Source: Alphaproteobacteria bacterium (GTDB taxonomy: Bacteria > Pseudomonadota > Alphaproteobacteria > CAAHEQ01 > UBA3637). From it: a stretch of DNA of 64,000 bases. Made by a program: the position numbers and the translations under genes. The DNA lies in NCBI GenBank assembly GCA_017559525.1, contig JAFYRI010000012.1, positions 15,164 through 79,163 of the forward strand. Direction: 5' to 3'. Each line of letters starts with the position of its first letter. Positions within the stretch are counted from its first letter, which is position 1. The notes under the pieces are model-generated. The model was not told the origin of the DNA and did not search any database. It was given only the letters and a program-made list of their open reading frames with translations. Below, piece after piece: positions 426 through 6,838 of this stretch.

Positions 426-520
426 ATAAAAATCCTTTGTCAGTTATTTTTGTTATTATATATTTTTTTGTTTAAAAGTACAAGAGAAAAAGAATATATT
501 TTTCGATGTCCGAAAAATCA

Positions 521-549
521 TTGACAAAAATAATGCAATATGATATAAT
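521..549 (+). promoter_or_regulatory. sigma70-type promoter (TTGACA-17 nt-TATAAT) upstream of the GNAT array
   Basis: Perfect consensus -35 TTGACA at 521-526 and -10 TATAAT at 544-549 with a 17-nt spacer. It lies inside the first track ORF, which argues for a downstream start at 581. Confidence 0.5.
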
Positions 550-580
550 TTTTCCACTATCTTATGCGAAAGGGAATTTG

Positions 581-1192
581 ATGATTGAAAATTTTGAAAT
601 GCCTTCTGAAATTAAAGGTAAGCGTATTTGTTTAAAGCGTGTAGAGGAAAATGATACAAATGCAATTAAAAAAGTTTGTGATGCAATTTTTAGCGAGGGA
701 ACACTAAAGCGAATTGAAAAAGTAATGGGATATTTTTCTGATGGACCTGATGATATTCCGTCTTTAGTTCGTTCTTTGAATCGTACATTTGAAAAAAATG
801 GTTTTAATTATTTTATTTTTAAAGATGATAAAGTTATTGGTCAAATTAATGGTTTCCCGTGTCAAGGTTATCAACGTTCAGTTGTGACGATTTGGGGATG
901 GATTTCTGATGCAGAAATGCGTAAAGGATATATGAAAGAGGCAATTAAGTTATTGGAAAATGAACATTTTTCAAGAAGTTTAATGTCTTTAGAAATTTCT
1001 GCTTATAATAATTTAGCGGTTCATGCTTTATGTCATTCTTTAAATTTTTATGGCGCGGGTGAAAGAACGCCTTATCAATATTTTTATCGCCATCGCTCTG
1101 ATTGGATGTCAGAACAAATGCCACAACGTATTATTCATCATGATGACATTAGTCAAGCTCATTCTCAGAAACAAAAGGGAGAACGTTCATAG
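581..1192 (+). CDS. GNAT family N-acetyltransferase (RimJ/RimL-like), paralog 1 of 5
   Basis: Shares motifs with the four downstream paralogs (R[IV]xLKR, W[IL]xxxxxGKGYM). Start chosen at MIENF, downstream of the promoter at 521-549. Confidence 0.6.
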   Translation: MIENFEMPSEIKGKRICLKRVEENDTNAIKKVCDAIFSEGTLKRIEKVMGYFSDGPDDIPSLVRSLNRTFEKNGFNYFIFKDDKVIGQINGFPCQGYQRSVVTIWGWISDAEMRKGYMKEAIKLLENEHFSRSLMSLEISAYNNLAVHALCHSLNFYGAGERTPYQYFYRHRSDWMSEQMPQRIIHHDDISQAHSQKQKGERS

Positions 1193-1789
1193 ATGTCTGT
1201 GATGTTCCGATATAATACAAATTGTTGGCCTGACAAACTTGTTGGGCCTCGTGTTGTATTAAAAAGATTGGAGCCAACACAAGAATATGCTGATTTATTT
1301 CACCAAATAATCAGCAATAATACAAAACATTTAACTGATAGTTTTGCTTATTTAGTGCATCAAATTAATTCATCGCAGGCTGCTTTGTCCTTTTTAACAG
1401 CCGCTTATCAAGATTTTCTTTATGAAGCGCGAGATGATTATGGTATTTTTGTCGGAAATGATTTTGTTGGTGCGGTTTTGGTTTGGGGAAAAAGACGCAC
1501 AGATCGTGAAATTATGTATTGGTTAAAAGAAGAAGCTTGTGGTTATGGTTATATGCATGATGCTTTGGATTTAATTGAACAAGAACATGCTAAATGTGCG
1601 CCTCATCATATTTTATTTGCTAATGTTAATGCTAAAGCAAGGGCTTCTGCAGCTTTATTAACAGCACGTGGTTATAATTTGGATGGACTTTTCTTTTTTA
1701 AACGACCAATGTCTAATGAATTGTCTCGAACGGTTATTCAGTCTGCGATGCATTCAATGCCGAAAGATGAGGGGCGAATATATGGATAA
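1193..1789 (+). CDS. GNAT family N-acetyltransferase, paralog 2
   Basis: PRVVLKRLEPTQEYA and YWLKEEACGYGYM motifs. The ATG follows the stop of paralog 1 immediately. Confidence 0.6.
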   Translation: MSVMFRYNTNCWPDKLVGPRVVLKRLEPTQEYADLFHQIISNNTKHLTDSFAYLVHQINSSQAALSFLTAAYQDFLYEARDDYGIFVGNDFVGAVLVWGKRRTDREIMYWLKEEACGYGYMHDALDLIEQEHAKCAPHHILFANVNAKARASAALLTARGYNLDGLFFFKRPMSNELSRTVIQSAMHSMPKDEGRIYG

Positions 1790-2354
1790 AATATTAAGGT
1801 CAAATCGTATTCGCTTAGAAATTTTGTCACCATTGCCGGAATATGCCGAACAATTGTCTGAAATTATTTGTCGTAACCGAGATCATTTAGACATGTGGCG
1901 AGGTGATGTTTTAAAATATGAAACATCCGAGTTATCGTTTTATAAATTGTTAATGGATAATTACTATTATGAACGTAAAGAAGGATATTTTTATCATATT
2001 TTTAAAGGTAAAAAAATTATTGGCCATATCAGTTTGTTGTCTTCTGGTAAATTTTGGGAAACATCTTATTGGTTAGATAAAGAATATACAGGACAAGGGT
2101 ATATGCGAGAGGCTTTAAAAACCTTGGAAAATGCTTGGTTTCAAAAAAGTACAGCGCCTATTACTGTTCTTATAAATCCCGAAAATACACCTTCTTTGAA
2201 AGTTATTCATAAAATGGGATATACTTTGTTTGGGCAGAACAGATATTTGAAAAATTTTGCTATGTTTATGAGGGAACAAAATGTACATCAACCATCATTA
2301 ATTATGTCAGCAAATCAACAAATTTTTACACAAAATCAACATGAGAAGGATTAA
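1782..2354 (+). CDS. GNAT family N-acetyltransferase, paralog 3
   Basis: Start at MDKILRSNRIRLEIL overlaps the stop of paralog 2 by 8 nt (translational coupling). YWLDKEYTGQGYM motif. Confidence 0.6.
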   Translation: MDKILRSNRIRLEILSPLPEYAEQLSEIICRNRDHLDMWRGDVLKYETSELSFYKLLMDNYYYERKEGYFYHIFKGKKIIGHISLLSSGKFWETSYWLDKEYTGQGYMREALKTLENAWFQKSTAPITVLINPENTPSLKVIHKMGYTLFGQNRYLKNFAMFMREQNVHQPSLIMSANQQIFTQNQHEKD

Positions 2355-2356
2355 AG

Positions 2357-2923
2357 ATGATACCATATCCAACCGTAATAGAAGGAACTCGTATTGTGTT
2401 GAAAATGTTATCTCCAACACCGACAAACGCACAAATGGTTTGTGATTTGGTGAAAAAAAATACAATGTATTTATATCCTTTTTTGAAAGAAGTGGTAACT
2501 GATGGTAAAGATGTATTAAATGCCTTACATCACTTGCGTCGGGCTGATAATTTATGTCGAGAAGATGATACGGCATTGTATTATATTTTTCATCAAGGAA
2601 AAATGGTTGGCGCAATTGAGGCTTTGATGTATCCTCATGAACGGGAGTTGCGTTTTTGGTTGGATCATGATGCAAAAGGTAAAGGATTGATGCGTGAAGC
2701 TGTTTTATTGATGGAAAAGATGTTATTTGAACGTAATCAAGATAGAATTATTTTAGGAATTTTAGATAGCAATACGCCATCACTTAAACTTGCAAAGCGA
2801 TTAGGATATACTGAAGATTGGGAAGGTTATTTCGAAATAACATATGATAAATTTCATATGTTAAGAAAAAATAATTCAAGAAAAAGTTTAACTAATTTAT
2901 ATGATCGAACAAATGGTAGATAA
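2357..2923 (+). CDS. GNAT family N-acetyltransferase, paralog 4
   Basis: TRIVLKMLSPTPTNA and FWLDHDAKGKGLM motifs. Confidence 0.6.
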   Translation: MIPYPTVIEGTRIVLKMLSPTPTNAQMVCDLVKKNTMYLYPFLKEVVTDGKDVLNALHHLRRADNLCREDDTALYYIFHQGKMVGAIEALMYPHERELRFWLDHDAKGKGLMREAVLLMEKMLFERNQDRIILGILDSNTPSLKLAKRLGYTEDWEGYFEITYDKFHMLRKNNSRKSLTNLYDRTNGR

Positions 2924-2935
2924 AGGAAGTATATA

Positions 2936-3517
2936 ATGTATCCTAGTAGAATTATAGGACGAAATATTGAGTTGAAAATTTTACCGGCAACTGAGGAAAA
3001 TGCTGAAAAGGTTTATTATGTTATTCAAAATAATAAAGAATATTTGTCTCAATTTTTTCAACGATTGGTTTCAGCTTTTGATAATAAAAAACAGGCATTA
3101 GATATTTTAAAATTTGATGAAGAACAAAGATGGCTTAATAATTCTGTAAATTATTATATTTTTTCAAAGAATCAGTTGATTGGTGAGATTGCTGCCGATT
3201 GGTCTAGGCAAAATAGTAGAGCTTCTATTATTTATTGGCTGGATAAATCTCATGTTGGAAAAGGATATATGTCTCAAGCTTTGAAAATGATGGAAAAGAA
3301 CCTGTTTTTAAATGGGTATTCTGAAACGCGTTTGTATATTGATGCTGCCAATTGGCGTTCTGTAAATGTTGCAAAATACAATTACTATCAATTAAGTGAT
3401 GATGGTAATTATTATTTTAAAACACGTCAAATGTATAATAATCCTCGTCAACCAATATGCCATAAACAAGATTATATTGGACGTTTTTGTCGTTTGTTTC
3501 GGACGCGAAATAGATAA
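2936..3517 (+). CDS. GNAT family N-acetyltransferase, paralog 5
   Basis: RNIELKILPATEENA and YWLDKSHVGKGYM motifs. Confidence 0.6.
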   Translation: MYPSRIIGRNIELKILPATEENAEKVYYVIQNNKEYLSQFFQRLVSAFDNKKQALDILKFDEEQRWLNNSVNYYIFSKNQLIGEIAADWSRQNSRASIIYWLDKSHVGKGYMSQALKMMEKNLFLNGYSETRLYIDAANWRSVNVAKYNYYQLSDDGNYYFKTRQMYNNPRQPICHKQDYIGRFCRLFRTRNR

Positions 3518-4257: not shown

Positions 4258-5619
4258 TTAACGAAAGAAATCTTTTAAGTAATCAGCTAATTTCGCAACT
4301 TCAATGCGTTCTTGTTCCATTGTGTCACGATTACGCAATGTAACAGTTGCTGGAGATTGTTCGATTGAATCAAAGTCAACTGTAATACATAAAGGTGTTC
4401 CGATTTCGTCATGACGGCGATAGGCTTTACCGACATTTCCGGAATCTTCTAACATAACACGACCGATGCCTGTTTTCAGCAAGCTATCCTTAATGTCATG
4501 GGCCATTTTCATGATTTCAGGATTGTTGCGTTTTAACGGAATGACGGCCACTTTTACAGGTGCCAAATGTTTTTTGAGTTTTAACACAATGCGTTCTGTT
4601 CCATTTGGCAATTGTTCTTGGGTAAAGGCGTCCATCATTAATACAACGAAAGCACGGTCTAATCCCATAGCGGTTTCTACAACGTATGGAATATATGTTT
4701 TGTTGCCGTCAAAGACATCTAAATAACTTAATTCTGTTGTGGAATCTGTGTTTTTCATGACATTAGCTTGGATATCAAATTTGCTTTGATTTTTGGTATG
4801 AGAACCCAAGTCGAAATCTTGACGGTCATGAATGCCTTCAACTTCATCAAATCCCCATGGGAATTCATATTCAATATCTGTAGCACATTTGGCGTAATGA
4901 GCCAATTGTTCATGATCTTTGAAGCGTAATTTATTTTCTGGAATACCTTGGTCAATCCACCACTGACGGCGAATTTCTTTCCATTTGTTCCACCATTCAA
5001 TGTCTGTTCCAGGCTTAACAAAATATTGCATTTCGGCTTGTTCAAATTCACGTTGACGGAATAAGAAGTTGCGTGGTGTAATTTCGTTACGGAAAGATTT
5101 ACCATGTTGGCAAATACCGAATGGTAATTTTCTGGCGGTTGAGACAAGTACGTTTTTAAAGTTTAAGTATGATCCTTGAGCTGTTTCCGGACGTAAATAA
5201 GCAAATGAAGAACCATCATCAACAGGTCCGATATTTGTTTTCATCATCAACATAAATGGACGAGGTTCTGTCAAATCTGTGCTACCACATTCTGGACATT
5301 TTCCATCTTGGATATGGTCGGCACGGATACGAGCTTTACATTTTTTACAATCGCACAACGGATCAGAGAATGTTGATTCGTGTCCACTGTATTTCCAAAC
5401 TAAATGATGAGAAAGATGGGAGCATTCCAATCCTTCAATATCATCACGTTCATATACCATTGCACGCCACCAAGCATCACGAATATTCTTTTTTAGTTCG
5501 ATGCCAAGTGGACCAAAATCATAAGTTCCTTTTAAACCACCATAGATTTCTGAATCTTGAAAAACAAAACCACGGCGTTTGCATAAGCTAACTAATTGTT
5601 CCATACTGGTTGCTGACAT
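4258..5619 (-). CDS. glyQS: glycine--tRNA ligase, homodimeric alpha2 type
   Basis: 453 aa. FQDSEIYGG, zinc-knuckle-like CxxC cluster, RPETAQG and LRFKDHEQLAHYA are class II GlyRS (alpha2) signatures. Confidence 0.9.
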   Translation of the reverse strand: MSATSMEQLVSLCKRRGFVFQDSEIYGGLKGTYDFGPLGIELKKNIRDAWWRAMVYERDDIEGLECSHLSHHLVWKYSGHESTFSDPLCDCKKCKARIRADHIQDGKCPECGSTDLTEPRPFMLMMKTNIGPVDDGSSFAYLRPETAQGSYLNFKNVLVSTARKLPFGICQHGKSFRNEITPRNFLFRQREFEQAEMQYFVKPGTDIEWWNKWKEIRRQWWIDQGIPENKLRFKDHEQLAHYAKCATDIEYEFPWGFDEVEGIHDRQDFDLGSHTKNQSKFDIQANVMKNTDSTTELSYLDVFDGNKTYIPYVVETAMGLDRAFVVLMMDAFTQEQLPNGTERIVLKLKKHLAPVKVAVIPLKRNNPEIMKMAHDIKDSLLKTGIGRVMLEDSGNVGKAYRRHDEIGTPLCITVDFDSIEQSPATVTLRNRDTMEQERIEVAKLADYLKDFFR

Positions 5620-5731: not shown

Positions 5732-6226
5732 ATGCAAGTTATTGTGAATGATTTAATGCAACAAAATTATATATATGAACGAACTGAAGCAGAAGGTCAA
5801 AATTTTTCCGAATCGTTTCGTCCGGAATTAACACCAATACAAATGTTGGAAATGGGTGTGTTTGAGGGGCACTATATGACAGATTGTCAAAGTGAATTTC
5901 CAGTGTGTTGGTTTAAAAAAGCTAAAATGAGTTTGGTTCCAAATATAGAGTGTAATTATTTTGGTGTCAAATCTCGTCAACCATTGTCTGTGTGGCGTCA
6001 AAAAGGATGGATAATTGGTCCGGATGTGCGAGGTTGGTTTCAATGGTATTGTCGGTACTATTCGGGGCGTAGATTACCCGAAATTGATGATATTCAGATT
6101 CGTAGATGGCGTTCATTTCGTCGTCATAAAGCGCAAATAGAGCAAAATTGTTTGCCAATGGATACAAAATGTCGTCTAAAACAACGTCAAGCCCTCTTGC
6201 AATGGGCGTATAATCCTATGTTTTGA
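5732..6226 (+). CDS. hypothetical protein (Trp/Arg-rich C-terminal half)
   Basis: 164-aa ORF. No confident family assignment. Weak RBS. Confidence 0.35.
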   Translation: MQVIVNDLMQQNYIYERTEAEGQNFSESFRPELTPIQMLEMGVFEGHYMTDCQSEFPVCWFKKAKMSLVPNIECNYFGVKSRQPLSVWRQKGWIIGPDVRGWFQWYCRYYSGRRLPEIDDIQIRRWRSFRRHKAQIEQNCLPMDTKCRLKQRQALLQWAYNPMF

Positions 6227-6288: not shown

Positions 6289-6318
6289 TTGCAATTTATT
6301 TTTTTTTCGGTTATAACT
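6289..6318 (+). promoter_or_regulatory. putative promoter of tRNA-Thr (TTGCAA-17 nt-TATAAC)
   Basis: The CTTGCAATTTATTTTT block is the same as the one upstream of tRNA-Pro. The -10 lies 13 nt before the mature tRNA 5' end. Confidence 0.35.
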
Positions 6319-6330
6319 TCATTCATCGAT

Positions 6331-6388
<58 letters not shown>

Positions 6389-6406
<18 letters not shown>

Positions 6407-6838
6407 TTAAAAAAAGTCACCGTTAAGGTGGCTTTTTTTAATGGTATTTGTTGCGGGTCGGACTGACGAAGACAGTCAGTTCGGATGGAGGGATAGGCGG
6501 ATGTCAATACGCCGAAACAATCCCGACATAATGTTGAGGCTTAGCCGAAACAGCCCCTTGTGGGTGAGCTTTAGCGAATAATCCGACAACCGGCACCATT
6601 AAAAAAAGTCACCGTTAAGGTGGCTTTTTTTAATTGTATTTGTTGCGGGTCGGACTGACGAAAAATGTCAGTTCGAATGGAGGGATAGGCGGATGTCAAT
6701 ACGCCGAAACAATCCCGACATAATGTTGAGGCTTAGCCGAAACAGCCCCTTGTGGGTGAGCGAAAGCGAATAATCCGACAACCGGCACCATTAAAAAAAG
6801 TCACCGTTAAGGTGGCTTTTTTTAATTGTATATTTTTT
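6389..6838 (+). repeat. 192-bp unit repeated 2.3 times in tandem; each copy starts with the 18-nt tRNA-Thr 3' end plus the tRNA terminator
   Basis: ATCCGACAACCGGCACCA plus the terminator hairpin recur at 6389, 6581 and 6773, an exact period of 192 bp. Copies are more than 95% identical and the third is truncated. Confidence 0.8.
6411..6440 (+). terminator. rho-independent terminator after tRNA-Thr
   Basis: AAAAAAAGTCACCGTTAAGGTGGCTTTTTTT: an 8-bp stem, a TTAA loop and a T-run. Confidence 0.6.

Follow-up and report, generated by a model that had tools for sequence, protein, structure and literature searches.

The gene for tRNA-Thr(UGU) in the window, the 64,000-nt stretch of alphaproteobacterial DNA analyzed here, is followed by tandem copies of its own 3' end, which raises the question of whether such an array is the residue of integration events or a module belonging to the tRNA locus itself. 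The first-pass annotation favored the former, reading the repeated ends as att-like junctions of a miniature integrative element. The comparisons presented here point elsewhere: the array is probably an RtT-type tRNA-trailer repeat, an alphaproteobacterial counterpart, fitted to tRNA-Thr, of the 178-bp units at the tyrT/tyrV locus of E. coli. With similar confidence, its unit is best regarded as a structured non-coding module arranged around copies of its own tRNA 3' half, and not as the scar of an integrated element.

The tRNA-Thr array and the anatomy of its unit

The reiteration of the tRNA-Thr 3' end and its terminator with a 192-bp period, as initially annotated at 6389, 6581 and 6773, is borne out both by exact matches (ATCCGACAACCGGCACCA occurs exactly three times within 64 kb, at these positions, against a chance expectation of 0.05) and by Tandem Repeats Finder (6388-6831, period 192, 2.3 copies, 96% matches, no indels, score 832). 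The identity with the tRNA, initially put at about 23 nt into the T-arm, is actually 19 nt (AATCCGAC...CCA, from 6388, T-loop position 58), and this 19-nt tail is the segment reiterated in each unit. Together with the hairpin ACCATTAAAAAAAGTCACC/GGTGGCTTTTTTTAATGGT and a T-run, it makes up a block of ~58-65 nt common to all three copies. The features of the locus are the following:

6289-6317, + strand: promoter-like site of the tRNA gene, by sequence reading (TTGCAA 6289-6294, 17-nt spacer, TATAAC 6312-6317)
6331-6406, + strand: tRNA-Thr(UGU) gene (ARAGORN; Rfam tRNA, 68.8 bits)
6388-6406, + strand: tail copy 0, the last 19 nt of tRNA-Thr (AATCCGACAACCGGCACCA), from T-loop A58 to CCA
6403-6445, + strand: intrinsic-terminator-like hairpin 1, a 19-bp palindrome with GTTAA loop and T-run, beginning within the CCA end
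6407-6598, + strand: unit 1, 192 nt, allele w1 (terminator, inverted copy, P2, T-loop copy, body, tail)
6450-6469, + strand: inverted, degenerate copy of the tRNA 3' half (GTTGCGGGTCGGACTGACGA vs GTTGTCGGATTCGAACTGACGA of the reverse-complemented tRNA)
6463-6479, + strand: hairpin P2 of unit 1 (CTGAC-GAAGACA-GTCAG; 5 bp, 7-nt loop), its 3' strand copying the T-stem 5' strand
6475-6486, + strand: direct copy of the T-stem 5' strand and T-loop (GTCAGTTCGGAT; 11/12 vs tRNA)
6487-6579, + strand: GC-rich body (52% G+C vs 35% for the window)
6580-6598, + strand: tail copy 1, 19 nt, same as the tRNA 3' end
6598-6634, + strand: terminator-like hairpin 2
6599-6790, + strand: unit 2, 192 nt, allele w2
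6772-6790, + strand: tail copy 2, 19 nt
6790-6831, + strand: terminator-like hairpin 3 and array end (the repeat ends ...AATTGTAT, with no inverted copy after it)

The two units are 95.8% identical, and six of their eight differing positions lie in two hairpin loops (GAAAAAT in unit 2 vs GAAGACA in unit 1; GAAA vs TTTA). Both are non-coding, with longest ORFs of 26-46 aa that are shortened in the related locus L125, and no promoter-like site was found on the + strand inside them, nor a further copy of the body in the 64-kb window. Upstream of the tRNA, the TTGCAA...TATAA arrangement is kept at six orthologous loci and is also present upstream of tRNA-Pro.

Each unit runs from a tail with its terminator through the inverted tRNA 3' half, a short loop, the direct copy of the T-stem 5' strand and T-loop, and the GC-rich hairpin body to the next tail. 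The inverted copy is significant when local alignments are compared with those of shuffled sequences (p=0.005), and it was also found as an inverted repeat. Part of it, GTCGGA (6457-6462), is the 5' strand of a helix, P1, that pairs with TCCGAC of the tail and is present in the minimum-free-energy folds of units 1 and 2 of the window; the weak points of P1 are that two substitutions at L005 break it and that RNAalifold favors another partner within the body. The body forms the hairpins GGGAT..ATCCC/GGCG..CGCC and GGC-TTA-GCC and contains a second stretch complementary to the tail, GCCCCTTGTGGGT, while the motif GGTGAGCTTTAGCGAAT adjoins the tail.

An internal inverted repeat per unit, already recognized in the first-pass annotation, was recovered at 6463-6479 (P2) and, with the loop GAAAAAT, at 6655-6671; the P2 stem is unchanged in 6/6 type-1 sequences, the loop of which comes in three different alleles. 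The block described there as identical to the tRNA T-loop region, GTCAGTTCGAAT, fully matches the tRNA in unit 2 (12/12; 6667-6678) and falls one base short in unit 1 (11/12; 6475-6486). The proposed presence of tRNA-derived sequence therefore holds, in the form of both inverted and direct tRNA copies. The inverted copy of the tRNA 3' half, the split T-arm copy and the conserved hairpin body had gone unmentioned.

Folding, proposed as a check on the units, gave z-scores of ~-3, but the tRNA-fMet unit introduced below is no better than shuffles (z=-0.17). The + strand folds more stably than the - strand in 6/6 units (e.g., -55.5 vs -41.9 kcal/mol). Among four type-1 units, which include that of L125 (host flanking protein 75% identical) and from which the structure itself was predicted, 22 of ~28 variable columns fall in the 44% of columns that are unpaired, and all four stem substitutions retain pairing as G-U or A-U. 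Of the other stem changes, one turns G.A into C-G, and in another a stem gains a T..A pair via a two-sided insertion. A compensatory change once considered in P1 of the fMet unit was withdrawn, the inverted T-loop copy being the better explanation. The modeled folds are signs of single-strand structure on the tRNA strand.

Related units in other lineages and behind other tRNA genes

Behind the same tRNA-Thr, relatives carry 0, 1, 2 or truncated units: the site is empty at L091, L092 and L008, and L005 holds one unit and the window two. Truncated copies occur at L090, L094 and L125 and, behind tRNA-Pro, at L011. The occurrence of the unit elsewhere and its copy-number variation, both proposed as checks in the first-pass annotation, were thus observed. 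The array is not a private slippage product; units are found in relatives and behind other tRNAs as well. An independent assembly, L001, also has 2.3 copies; over 8.5 kb its only differences from the window are at the eight allele-defining positions, where the unit-2 allele is present in both units. The single unit of L005, 97.4% identical to unit 1, lies between a tRNA end, to which the terminator GTCACC... belongs, and a displaced tail, to which GAGAGGAC... belongs; the latter terminator stands directly after the tRNA at the empty sites L091 and L092 and also occurs in L009 and L094. The equivalent fragment of L094 retains the T-loop part of the inverted copy (18/19, p=0.0005).

The gene downstream of tRNA-Thr is different in each lineage, which marks the 3' site of this tRNA as a hotspot. 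In one host, 27 nt of the unit are conserved with 100% identity, the flanking protein being no more than 74% identical. In a scan of contigs with the flanking 164-aa protein, linkage to tRNA-Thr was lost beyond ~74% identity. By luck, the same scan also yielded the Ala, fMet and Pro siblings.

These siblings, units of the same layout in MAGs of other gut Alphaproteobacteria, follow tRNA-Ala(GGC), tRNA-Ala(CGC), tRNA-fMet and tRNA-Pro(GGG). The tRNA-Ala sibling is present as one or two units among strains whose neighboring QueH protein is 100% identical. Inverted copies are significant for Thr types 1 and 2, Ala-GGC (18/19), Ala-CGC, Pro-GGG (26/27 aligned bases, one 3-nt gap) and fMet, and the same test against shuffles detected none at two control loci; at L011 (tRNA-Pro), the inverted copy is present and the second tail absent. 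The bodies are also linked across tRNAs (Ala-fMet 23/25, Thr-fMet 16/17; both p<0.001), a 17-mer motif of the tRNA-Thr body being shared at 16/17 with the tRNA-fMet unit of L036. The bodies are mosaic, with the fMet unit composed of an Ala-like and a Thr-like module. Single bodies used as nhmmer queries matched their own family only, and in MAFFT alignments across families P1 and P2 were not aligned in structural register. An origin of the body from the neighboring tRNA was rejected, the similarity being non-significant for Thr and Ala and marginal for fMet (p=0.045, uncorrected). Judged by sequence comparison, the units are a family, each member fitted to its own tRNA.

Likeness to RtT and to other known systems

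RtT repeats behind the tRNA-Tyr genes of E. coli have been known since 1978, and the repeats of the tyrT locus are reportedly the subject of work by Egan and Landy in 1978, Rossi and colleagues in 1981, and Bosl and Kersten in 1991. To our knowledge, units of this type have so far been recognized only in Enterobacterales and Pasteurellales. Beyond tRNA-Tyr, members adjoin tRNA-Asn and tRNA-Lys in A. pleuropneumoniae (PMC4986893). The 178-bp repeats at tyrT-tyrV in E. coli correspond to RtT RNA (Rfam RF00391; gene rttR; small ORF tpr). Like the units of the window, these repeats are tandem, follow the tRNA immediately on the same strand (after tyrT and tyrV) and vary in copy number between strains; an RtT unit is found in 4700/5426 complete E. 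coli genomes, at 1-9 places each. Their period of 178 compares with 188-192 in the alphaproteobacterial units.

The likeness extends to the internal design. In both, the tail is 19 nt long and starts at T-loop A58 (AATCCGACAACCGGCACCA in the window, AATCCTTCCCCCACCACCA in E. coli), and an inverted T-arm copy is significant (19/22, p<0.0005 in E. coli, against p=0.005 in the window). P1 of the Rfam RtT consensus (GGGGAAGGA/UCCUUCCCC) is the same pairing of inverted copy and tail as in the window, and a direct copy of the T-stem 5' strand and T-loop is again present (AAGGUUCGA in the Rfam consensus; p=0.004 in E. coli), as is a GC-rich hairpin body with GCGAA/GAAA loops. In a joint MAFFT alignment, the E. 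coli, Thr, Ala and fMet units are collinear, and motifs recur at corresponding places: (G/C)AGCGAAAG or GAGGGATAG after the T-loop copy and GGGTGAG..GCGAA..TAATCC before the tail. A further stretch, GAGCGAAAGCGA, is shared at 12/12 by an E. coli unit and unit 2 (p=0.003), but at a different position within the unit.

The two groups differ in host class (Alphaproteobacteria vs Gammaproteobacteria) and in the tRNA served (Thr in the window and Ala, fMet and Pro in the siblings vs Tyr). The CCA is followed by a strong intrinsic terminator in each unit of the window family, whereas in E. coli it is followed by an AT-rich unstructured stretch, and the window units, unlike RtT, have no tpr-like conserved ORF. 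The Rfam RtT covariance model gave no match to the window units even at E<=10 on 168 nt, which places them below the 45-bit gathering threshold (the E. coli units score 133-138 bits), and none to the Ala, fMet, Ala-CGC, Thr type 2 and Pro units at E<=1; Rfam otherwise detected only tRNA and sub-threshold hairpin-type matches at the window and sibling loci. Pairwise local alignments between the units and the E. coli bodies are mostly not significant. Because only short motifs are similar between the bodies and most tests are non-significant, common descent with E. coli RtT is not proven, and the layout may possibly be shared through convergence.

An RNA product is known for E. coli RtT, which has been described as released from tRNA operon transcripts (PMC4986893; bioRxiv 10.1101/2024.07.17.603846). 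The rttR annotation of E. coli K-12 is a 171-nt RNA that begins 8 nt beyond tyrV and ends with the CCA of the first tail. By analogy with this RNA, the alphaproteobacterial unit would be transcribed from the tRNA promoter via read-through of the tRNA terminator; expression should depend on such read-through because a strong terminator begins each unit and no internal + strand promoter is present. Enzymes of tRNA maturation may then excise the unit, a proposal based on its 3' end being a copy of the tRNA 3' end within a helix, and the predicted product is a stable RNA of ~150-190 nt with a CCA end. Copy number, for which polymorphism is observed, would shift by unequal recombination between the ~58-nt blocks of tail plus terminator. 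The patchy presence of the units and their truncated copies fit dispensable or selfish DNA as well as an RNA gene.

Other known systems share some of these traits. The E. coli sRNAs rrA, rrB and rrF, found at rrn-operon ends (PMC8144298), are likewise short non-coding segments between two terminators, 3' of a stable-RNA operon, and set a precedent for the expression of a promoterless, terminator-flanked unit; unlike the window units, they have no tRNA-derived sequence, are not tandem and belong to an unrelated sequence family. BIMEs/REP are also short GC-rich palindromic modules in mosaic, and a similarity between rtT and BIMEs was reported (PMC2965389), but BIMEs are dispersed in intergenic regions and not fitted to a neighboring tRNA.

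Several identities were rejected. The two-piece (permuted) tmRNA has a layout of T-arm, acceptor 3' strand, CCA, intervening loop, acceptor 5' strand, tag frame and pseudoknots. ARAGORN made no tmRNA call; at the tRNA-Ala loci the tmRNA_permuted model reached 24 bits (threshold 47), driven by tRNA-Ala itself, and what follows the hairpin is complementary to the T-stem no less than to the acceptor strand. Group I/II introns, ribozymes, CRISPR-like arrays and type III antitoxin repeats had no Rfam support and were of the wrong sizes, and the "spacers" of the array are identical. A coding repeat was rejected as there is no conserved ORF, and a protein-database search with the translated unit (spurious gene calls) returned no candidate.

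Possible integration, possible neutral origins and the meaning of the family

The arrangement at L005, in which tRNA, GTCACC-terminator, body and tail precede the very terminator that follows the tRNA at empty sites, resembles an insertion that brought its own tRNA 3' end. The array could have arisen from a miniature non-autonomous element, i.e., a ~190-bp att cassette with a replacement tRNA 3' end and terminator, inserted by a tRNA-targeting site-specific recombinase encoded elsewhere. Its target would be the T-loop-to-CCA segment, tandem copies would reflect repeated integration, and the inverted copy might fold the top strand into a mimic of the target duplex, as in integron attC or CTX-phage attP. 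Unit presence differs among close relatives in agreement with this explanation, and the tRNA 3' end is directly repeated on either side of the unit (tails of 19 nt, or as much as 58 nt if the terminator is counted). In all families the tRNA identity begins in the T-loop, a classical sublocation of integrase crossover (PMC3146451). The related bodies at different tRNAs in different species, the 27-nt piece conserved beyond its flanking protein and the hotspot downstream of the tRNA also speak for it, and both integrase-less att elements (CIMEs) and tandem accretion are known (PMC5704250). However, the L005 arrangement could also be produced by homologous recombination in a shared 26-nt tail, and unequal or homologous recombination explains empty and occupied sites equally well. 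A core-type inverted repeat is absent beside the tail junction, units fitted to their tRNAs would require a different recombinase specificity for each tRNA, and the E. coli counterpart is a transcribed and processed part of a tRNA operon.

The searches for a recombinase and a parent element also weigh against integration. Pfam detected no integrase, transposase or reverse transcriptase domain in ORFs of at least 150 aa over the whole 64-kb window, and PADLOC (defense systems in the window) and NCBIfam (neighboring genes) were negative. No larger parent element was found among phage, plasmid, IMG/VR viral-contig and JGI metagenome sequences: blastn against phage and plasmid records matched the tRNA only; three of four patterns were unmatched in IMG/VR contigs, and the 16 matches of the other, GGTGAGCKWWAGCGAAT, are attributable to chance, occurring in unrelated contexts; in JGI metagenome contigs, neither tail-N160-190-tail nor a P2/T-loop 26-mer was matched. 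Integration-scar arrays, such as the Dehalococcoides ssrA islands (PMC3146451), and CIMEs (PMC5704250) do share with the window tRNA-like direct repeats of the 3' end that start in the T-loop, tandem and strain-variable organization, and elements without an integrase of their own. Those repeats, however, bound kb-scale islands, and recombinase genes lie close by or in sister elements, whereas the units here are ~190 bp, non-coding and equipped with an inverted tRNA copy and a conserved structured body. The integrative-element proposal thus keeps its insertion-like arrangement and copy-number variation but lacks a recombinase in 64 kb and a parent element, and we consider it unlikely.

Mutation without function or mobility could account for another part of the observations: strong bidirectional terminator hairpins at the CCA would drive snap-back template switching and leave an inverted tRNA 3' half as a palindrome extension, after which slipped or unequal recombination of T-arm copies would generate tandem units. 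The inverted copy indeed always lies directly after the terminator T-run and extends its palindrome, which in L009 and L094 runs near-perfectly from ATCCGACAAC via the terminator to GTTGTCGGAT. The tRNA-Pro copy of L011 without a second tail, the decay and truncation of units, and the spacing of the T-stem copies of the tRNA and unit 1 (96 nt, exactly half the period) point the same way. Such a by-product would nevertheless leave unexplained the motifs that bodies share across tRNAs and species and with E. coli RtT, as well as a 52% G+C body in a 35% genome. It also sits poorly with stems that are retained and loops that vary in hosts at 75% flanking-protein identity, and with the same module order and 178-192 nt size at independent loci, making it quite improbable. 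That a short-read assembler built the array out of allelic variants of one unit is scarcely credible. Many Logan and ENA contigs do end at the tRNA or within the unit, and the window and L001 differ solely at the eight allele-defining sites, which leaves the order and number of alleles uncertain. The 2.3-copy length is nonetheless the same in these two independent assemblies, and the body-tail-terminator-body junction needs a true tandem, the shared block being only ~58 nt. In addition, contigs of the tRNA-Ala sibling with one and with two units have intact unique flanks, and arrays of the same type occur in complete E. coli genomes.

The RtT-type tRNA-trailer repeat remains the preferred reading, and it bears on a family that has stood alone as an oddity of the tyrT locus of E. 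coli for over 40 years. The same design recurs in uncultured gut Alphaproteobacteria at five tRNA genes for four amino acids, with every pairing segment refitted to the local tRNA, and none of these units is detected by the current Rfam model. On these sequence grounds, the recurrence, refitting and missed matches suggest that the RtT class is much broader than annotated and that what defines it is mimicry of the host tRNA 3' half, not a particular sequence. A more speculative extension, which we hold as doubtful, is that RtT-type units are a widespread class that moves between tRNA genes and refits its inverted and direct T-arm copies and 19-nt tail, the fold of the strand mimicking the 3' half of the tRNA gene and this mimic guiding insertion or processing. 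If so, the folded tRNA-sense strand would act as RNA or as lagging-strand-template DNA, and the units would be nucleic-acid-guided mobile or regulatory elements without a protein gene, at tRNA genes across Proteobacteria.

In practical terms, tRNA genes with such arrays are places where short-read assemblies break, and the arrays may be misread as scars of integration. Mimicry of the tRNA 3' half offers a concrete rule by which a search model that does not depend on the tRNA could be designed. The comparison also sharpens the question of whether RtT is a regulatory RNA made by processing, a device for processing or termination, or selfish DNA, which becomes addressable with comparative data, as it could not be with single-locus genetics in E. 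coli.

A tandem array fitted to tRNA-Thr

The gene for tRNA-Thr(UGU) at 6331-6406 (+), called by both ARAGORN and Rfam, is followed by reiterations of its own 3' end at a 192-bp period, as the first-pass annotation had described: the 64 kb contain the 18-mer ATCCGACAACCGGCACCA at exactly three places (6389, 6581 and 6773; chance expectation 0.05), and Tandem Repeats Finder reports a period of 192 across 6388-6831, with 2.3 copies, 96% matches and no indels. A block of ~58-65 nt is common to all three copies and consists of a tRNA portion, a hairpin built on a 19-bp palindrome, and a T-run that, together with the hairpin, scores as an intrinsic terminator. The tRNA portion measures 19 nt (AATCCGAC...CCA, starting at T-loop position 58) rather than the ~23 nt first estimated. 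The array can be written tRNA-5'-part, A-B-A-B-A, where A is this 19-nt tail plus terminator and B a 134-nt body region, and it holds two 192-nt units (unit 1, 6407-6598; unit 2, 6599-6790).

Parts of one unit in their order after the terminator T-run (unit 1)
6450-6469: inverted, degenerate copy of the tRNA 3' half, GTTGCGGGTCGGACTGACGA against the reverse-complemented tRNA GTTGTCGGATTCGAACTGACGA (p=0.005 versus shuffles)
6463-6479: P2, a short hairpin with a 5-bp stem and a 7-nt loop
6475-6486: copy of the T-stem 5' strand and T-loop, made up of the 3' strand of P2 and the bases that follow
6487-6579: body, 93 nt, with a G+C content of 52% versus 35% for the window
closing the unit: tail, 19 nt

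Within the inverted copy, GTCGGA (6457-6462) is complementary to TCCGAC of the tail and could form helix P1 with it, and the body holds a second stretch complementary to the tail, GCCCCTTGTGGGT, making an alternative local hairpin possible. The T-loop block GTCAGTTCGAAT, initially taken to be identical to the tRNA, is exact in unit 2 and matches at 11/12 positions in unit 1. No promoter-like site was found on the + strand inside the unit and no conserved ORF in the units, whose longest ORFs span 26-46 aa.

An independent assembly of the locus (L001) contains an array of the same length, and the tandem is therefore real. Over 8.5 kb the two assemblies differ only at the eight sites that distinguish unit 1 from unit 2, where both L001 units (4676-5059, corresponding to 6407-6790) carry the unit-2 allele. 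This difference reflects either gene conversion or population turnover, or else an allele order unresolved by short reads; likewise, the alleles occupying the window array are either variable or beyond short-read resolution. Unit 1 is closer to the unit of the related contig L005 (97.4% identity) than to unit 2 (95.8%), so neither window unit is a recent local copy of the other.

Variation among relatives and behind other tRNA genes

Names attached to homologues mark the host as an uncultured alphaproteobacterium of gut type. Contigs of relatives were found via the protein encoded upstream of the tRNA (5732-6226, +; 164 aa). This protein lacks a Pfam or NCBIfam match, has >8000 homologues with very wide conservation in Alphaproteobacteria, and contains the invariant motifs GWFQWYCRYY.GRR and QRQALLQW; in several MAGs its gene adjoins a tRNA gene (Thr, Leu, Met, Pro) or queH.

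The tRNA-Thr locus in relatives (percentages, identity of the 164-aa protein to that of the window)
L005 (95%): one unit; distal tail followed by a different terminator (GAGAGGAC...)
L090 (91%): B present as its first ~70 nt only; second tail absent
L009 (84%): tRNA followed directly by the GAGAGGAC terminator, then by a unit of a second sequence type
L008 (84%): unit absent
L125, L126 (75%): complete window-like (type-1) unit; distal tail degenerate, without terminator
L094 (74%): as L009, plus a type-1 fragment
L091, L092 (74%): unit absent

The comparison of copy number among related genomes, which had been proposed from the sequence alone, thus finds none, one or truncated units in relatives and two in the window. 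The second unit type (L094 3382-3600, L009 2186-2278) has a near-perfect palindrome, ATCCGACAAC followed by the GAGAGGAC terminator and GTTGTCGGAT, and its body shows no significant similarity to that of type 1; in L094 its tail is lost and the type-1 fragment comes after it.

The downstream gene at this locus differs in almost every lineage. In the window it encodes an 825-aa protein with a weak HD domain (6848-9325, -), ending 17 nt after the array and carrying in-frame tandem repeats of 27 and 69 nt (8582-8747). The equivalent position in L005 (2242-4116, -) encodes a 624-aa protein only 32% identical in this 95% relative and sharing the N-terminus MLKETLQKV; the two appear to belong to a paralogue family that changes quickly, at a variable locus. 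Further upstream, five consecutive GNAT acetyltransferase ORFs (506-3517, +; Acetyltransf_3/_1), four detected by Pfam scan and the fifth (2357-2923) by precomputed annotation in L001, precede a class II aminoacyl-tRNA synthetase gene (4258-5619).

All tRNAs of the fetched loci were scanned for tail repeats and inverted copies. Behind tRNA-Ala(GGC), adjoining queH, the period is 188 and the inverted T-arm copy matches at 18/19 positions; L096 carries two full units and L097 and L098 one each; their unique flanks are the same and their QueH proteins identical. The tRNA-fMet of L036 is followed by a single, older unit whose tail has diverged and whose terminator is different and its own; the tRNA-Ala(CGC) of L105 by a terminator, an inverted T-arm copy and a direct copy, after which the contig ends; and the tRNA-Pro(GGG) of L011 by P2 and an inverted copy (26/27 aligned bases, one 3-nt gap), with the second tail absent. 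The controls, tRNA-Pro(UGG) of the window and an empty Thr site, yielded neither tail repeats nor inverted copies. Bodies also match between Ala and fMet (23/25, p<0.001) and between Thr and fMet (GGTGAGCTT(T/A)AGCGAAT, 16/17, p<0.001), and the motif GAGGCTT..GGATAAA is common to Ala and Pro (p=0.02). Judged by these sequences, the units are a family with pairing segments fitted to each host tRNA, not a one-off.

The window tRNA-Pro(UGG) (11942-12018) has a promoter of the type seen at tRNA-Thr and a terminator, without a unit of this kind; the sequence after it (12001-14000) has a G+C content of only 25% and a 513-aa ORF without a family match. Additionally, sub-threshold Rfam tmRNA_permuted matches (24 bits versus a threshold of 47; L096 452-561, -, and L105 30-362, -) span the tRNA-Ala 3' half, terminator and inverted copy, an order (T-arm, acceptor 3' strand, CCA, hairpin, complementary strand) that superficially resembles a permuted tRNA-like domain.

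In all six units the tRNA-sense strand is predicted to fold more stably than the - strand, the difference reaching 13.6 kcal/mol. Fold z-scores are near -3 for Thr and Ala units; the fMet unit shows no advantage over shuffled sequence. When only the four full type-1 units are aligned, the same four from which the structure was predicted, 22 of ~28 variable columns fall in unpaired columns (44% of all), and pairing survives all four in-stem substitutions, through G-U or A-U on the + strand. L125 has C-G in place of a G.A mismatch, and insertions on either side lengthen its GGC-TTA-GCC hairpin by a T..A pair. P2 has three loop alleles on an unchanging stem; in L005 two changes break P1.

Correspondence with the RtT repeats of E. 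coli

The tyrT locus of E. coli (NC_000913.3), which has a similar layout, carries a 178-bp unit repeated 3.1 times after tyrV, and one further copy forms the tyrT-tyrV spacer. The primary papers on these RtT repeats are reportedly those of Egan and Landy (1978), Rossi et al. (1981) and Bosl and Kersten (1991). Like the window units, each RtT unit ends in the last 19 nt of its tRNA (AATCCTTCCCCCACCACCA, from A58 of tRNA-Tyr) and contains a T-arm copy in inverted orientation (19/22, p<0.0005), then the T-stem 5' strand and T-loop copied directly (p=0.004), then a GC-rich body. The closing helix of the Rfam consensus RF00391 (GGGGAAGGA/UCCUUCCCC) is the same inverted-copy-to-tail pairing as P1. 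In the K-12 annotation the 171-nt small RNA rttR begins 8 nt past tyrV and ends at the CCA of the first tail. Aligned jointly with MAFFT, the E. coli, Thr, Ala and fMet units are collinear, with the T-loop copy followed by (G/C)AGCGAAAG or GAGGGATAG, and with GGGTGAG..GCGAA..TAATCC just before the tail; in pairwise comparisons with E. coli bodies, one 12-mer alone reaches significance, and its position differs between the two units.

The window array shows all positional and architectural features of RtT. However, RF00391 scores the four E. coli units at 133-138 bits and matches no Alphaproteobacteria unit, even at E<=10 on 168 nt, and the array is therefore classed as an RtT-like variant outside RF00391 in its present definition. 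It further differs from E. coli RtT in host class and host tRNA, in lacking a counterpart of the small ORF tpr annotated at the K-12 tyrT locus, and in the strong intrinsic terminator that opens every unit.

Of 5426 complete E. coli genomes, 4700 carry the RtT unit, at 1-9 places each, and copy number is therefore variable there too. In E. coli SK1144 (L129, 1501-1703) the tRNA-Tyr genes lie 33 nt apart without the RtT spacer copy, and an opposite-strand desaturase gene starts 17 nt past the second tRNA, at the place that the RtT array occupies in K-12; gene content changes at the E. coli locus as well. RtT members adjoin tRNA-Asn and tRNA-Lys genes in Pasteurellaceae (PMC4986893), are gained and lost among Erwinia strains (PMC4986893; bioRxiv 10.1101/2024.07.17.603846; PMC2965389; PMC7542023), and have been likened to BIMEs (PMC2965389). 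RtT is released from transcripts of tyrT and other tRNA operons (PMC4986893; bioRxiv 10.1101/2024.07.17.603846) and may affect the stringent response (PMC4986893; bioRxiv 10.1101/2024.07.17.603846; PMC2965389; PMC7542023).

Many short-read contigs, from several samples, stop inside the tRNA or the first unit (L002-L004, L007, L099-L104). RtT-like repeats thus consistently fragment metagenome assemblies where they adjoin tRNA genes, and MAGs probably contain too few of them as a result.

Expression, origin and significance

Anatomy, fitting to each tRNA, polymorphism and RtT correspondence are observed directly; by analogy with rtT RNA, the unit would most likely be transcribed by read-through from the tRNA promoter and excised by tRNA-maturation enzymes, because its terminus is a tRNA 3' end within a predicted helix. 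Changes in copy number would most likely come from unequal recombination between tail-plus-terminator blocks. The sRNAs of E. coli rrn terminators are a precedent for expression of a terminator-flanked segment (PMC8144298).

The initial suggestion that the repeated tRNA ends are att junctions of a miniature integrative element draws on features that hold, namely the terminator arrangement in L005, the boundary in the T-loop and the variable downstream region, but is improbable, since no recombinase was found in the 64 kb and no parent element in the searched collections. Slightly less probable again is neutral palindrome extension with slippage, which accounts for inverted copies abutting terminators but leaves the shared body motifs, the G+C content and the kept stems unexplained. 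That the array is an assembly artefact is very unlikely given the agreement of two assemblies and the presence of such units in complete E. coli genomes. These explanations are not mutually exclusive, and RtT-type units could be transcribed and selfish at once.

The repeat is thus real, more than slippage, and of a known but poorly understood kind. What is new is that such units reach into Alphaproteobacteria, where they occur behind five tRNA genes decoding four amino acids and carry their own terminator in each unit, and that they follow a recognisable design rule, mimicry of the 3' half of the host tRNA, which the present Rfam model misses.
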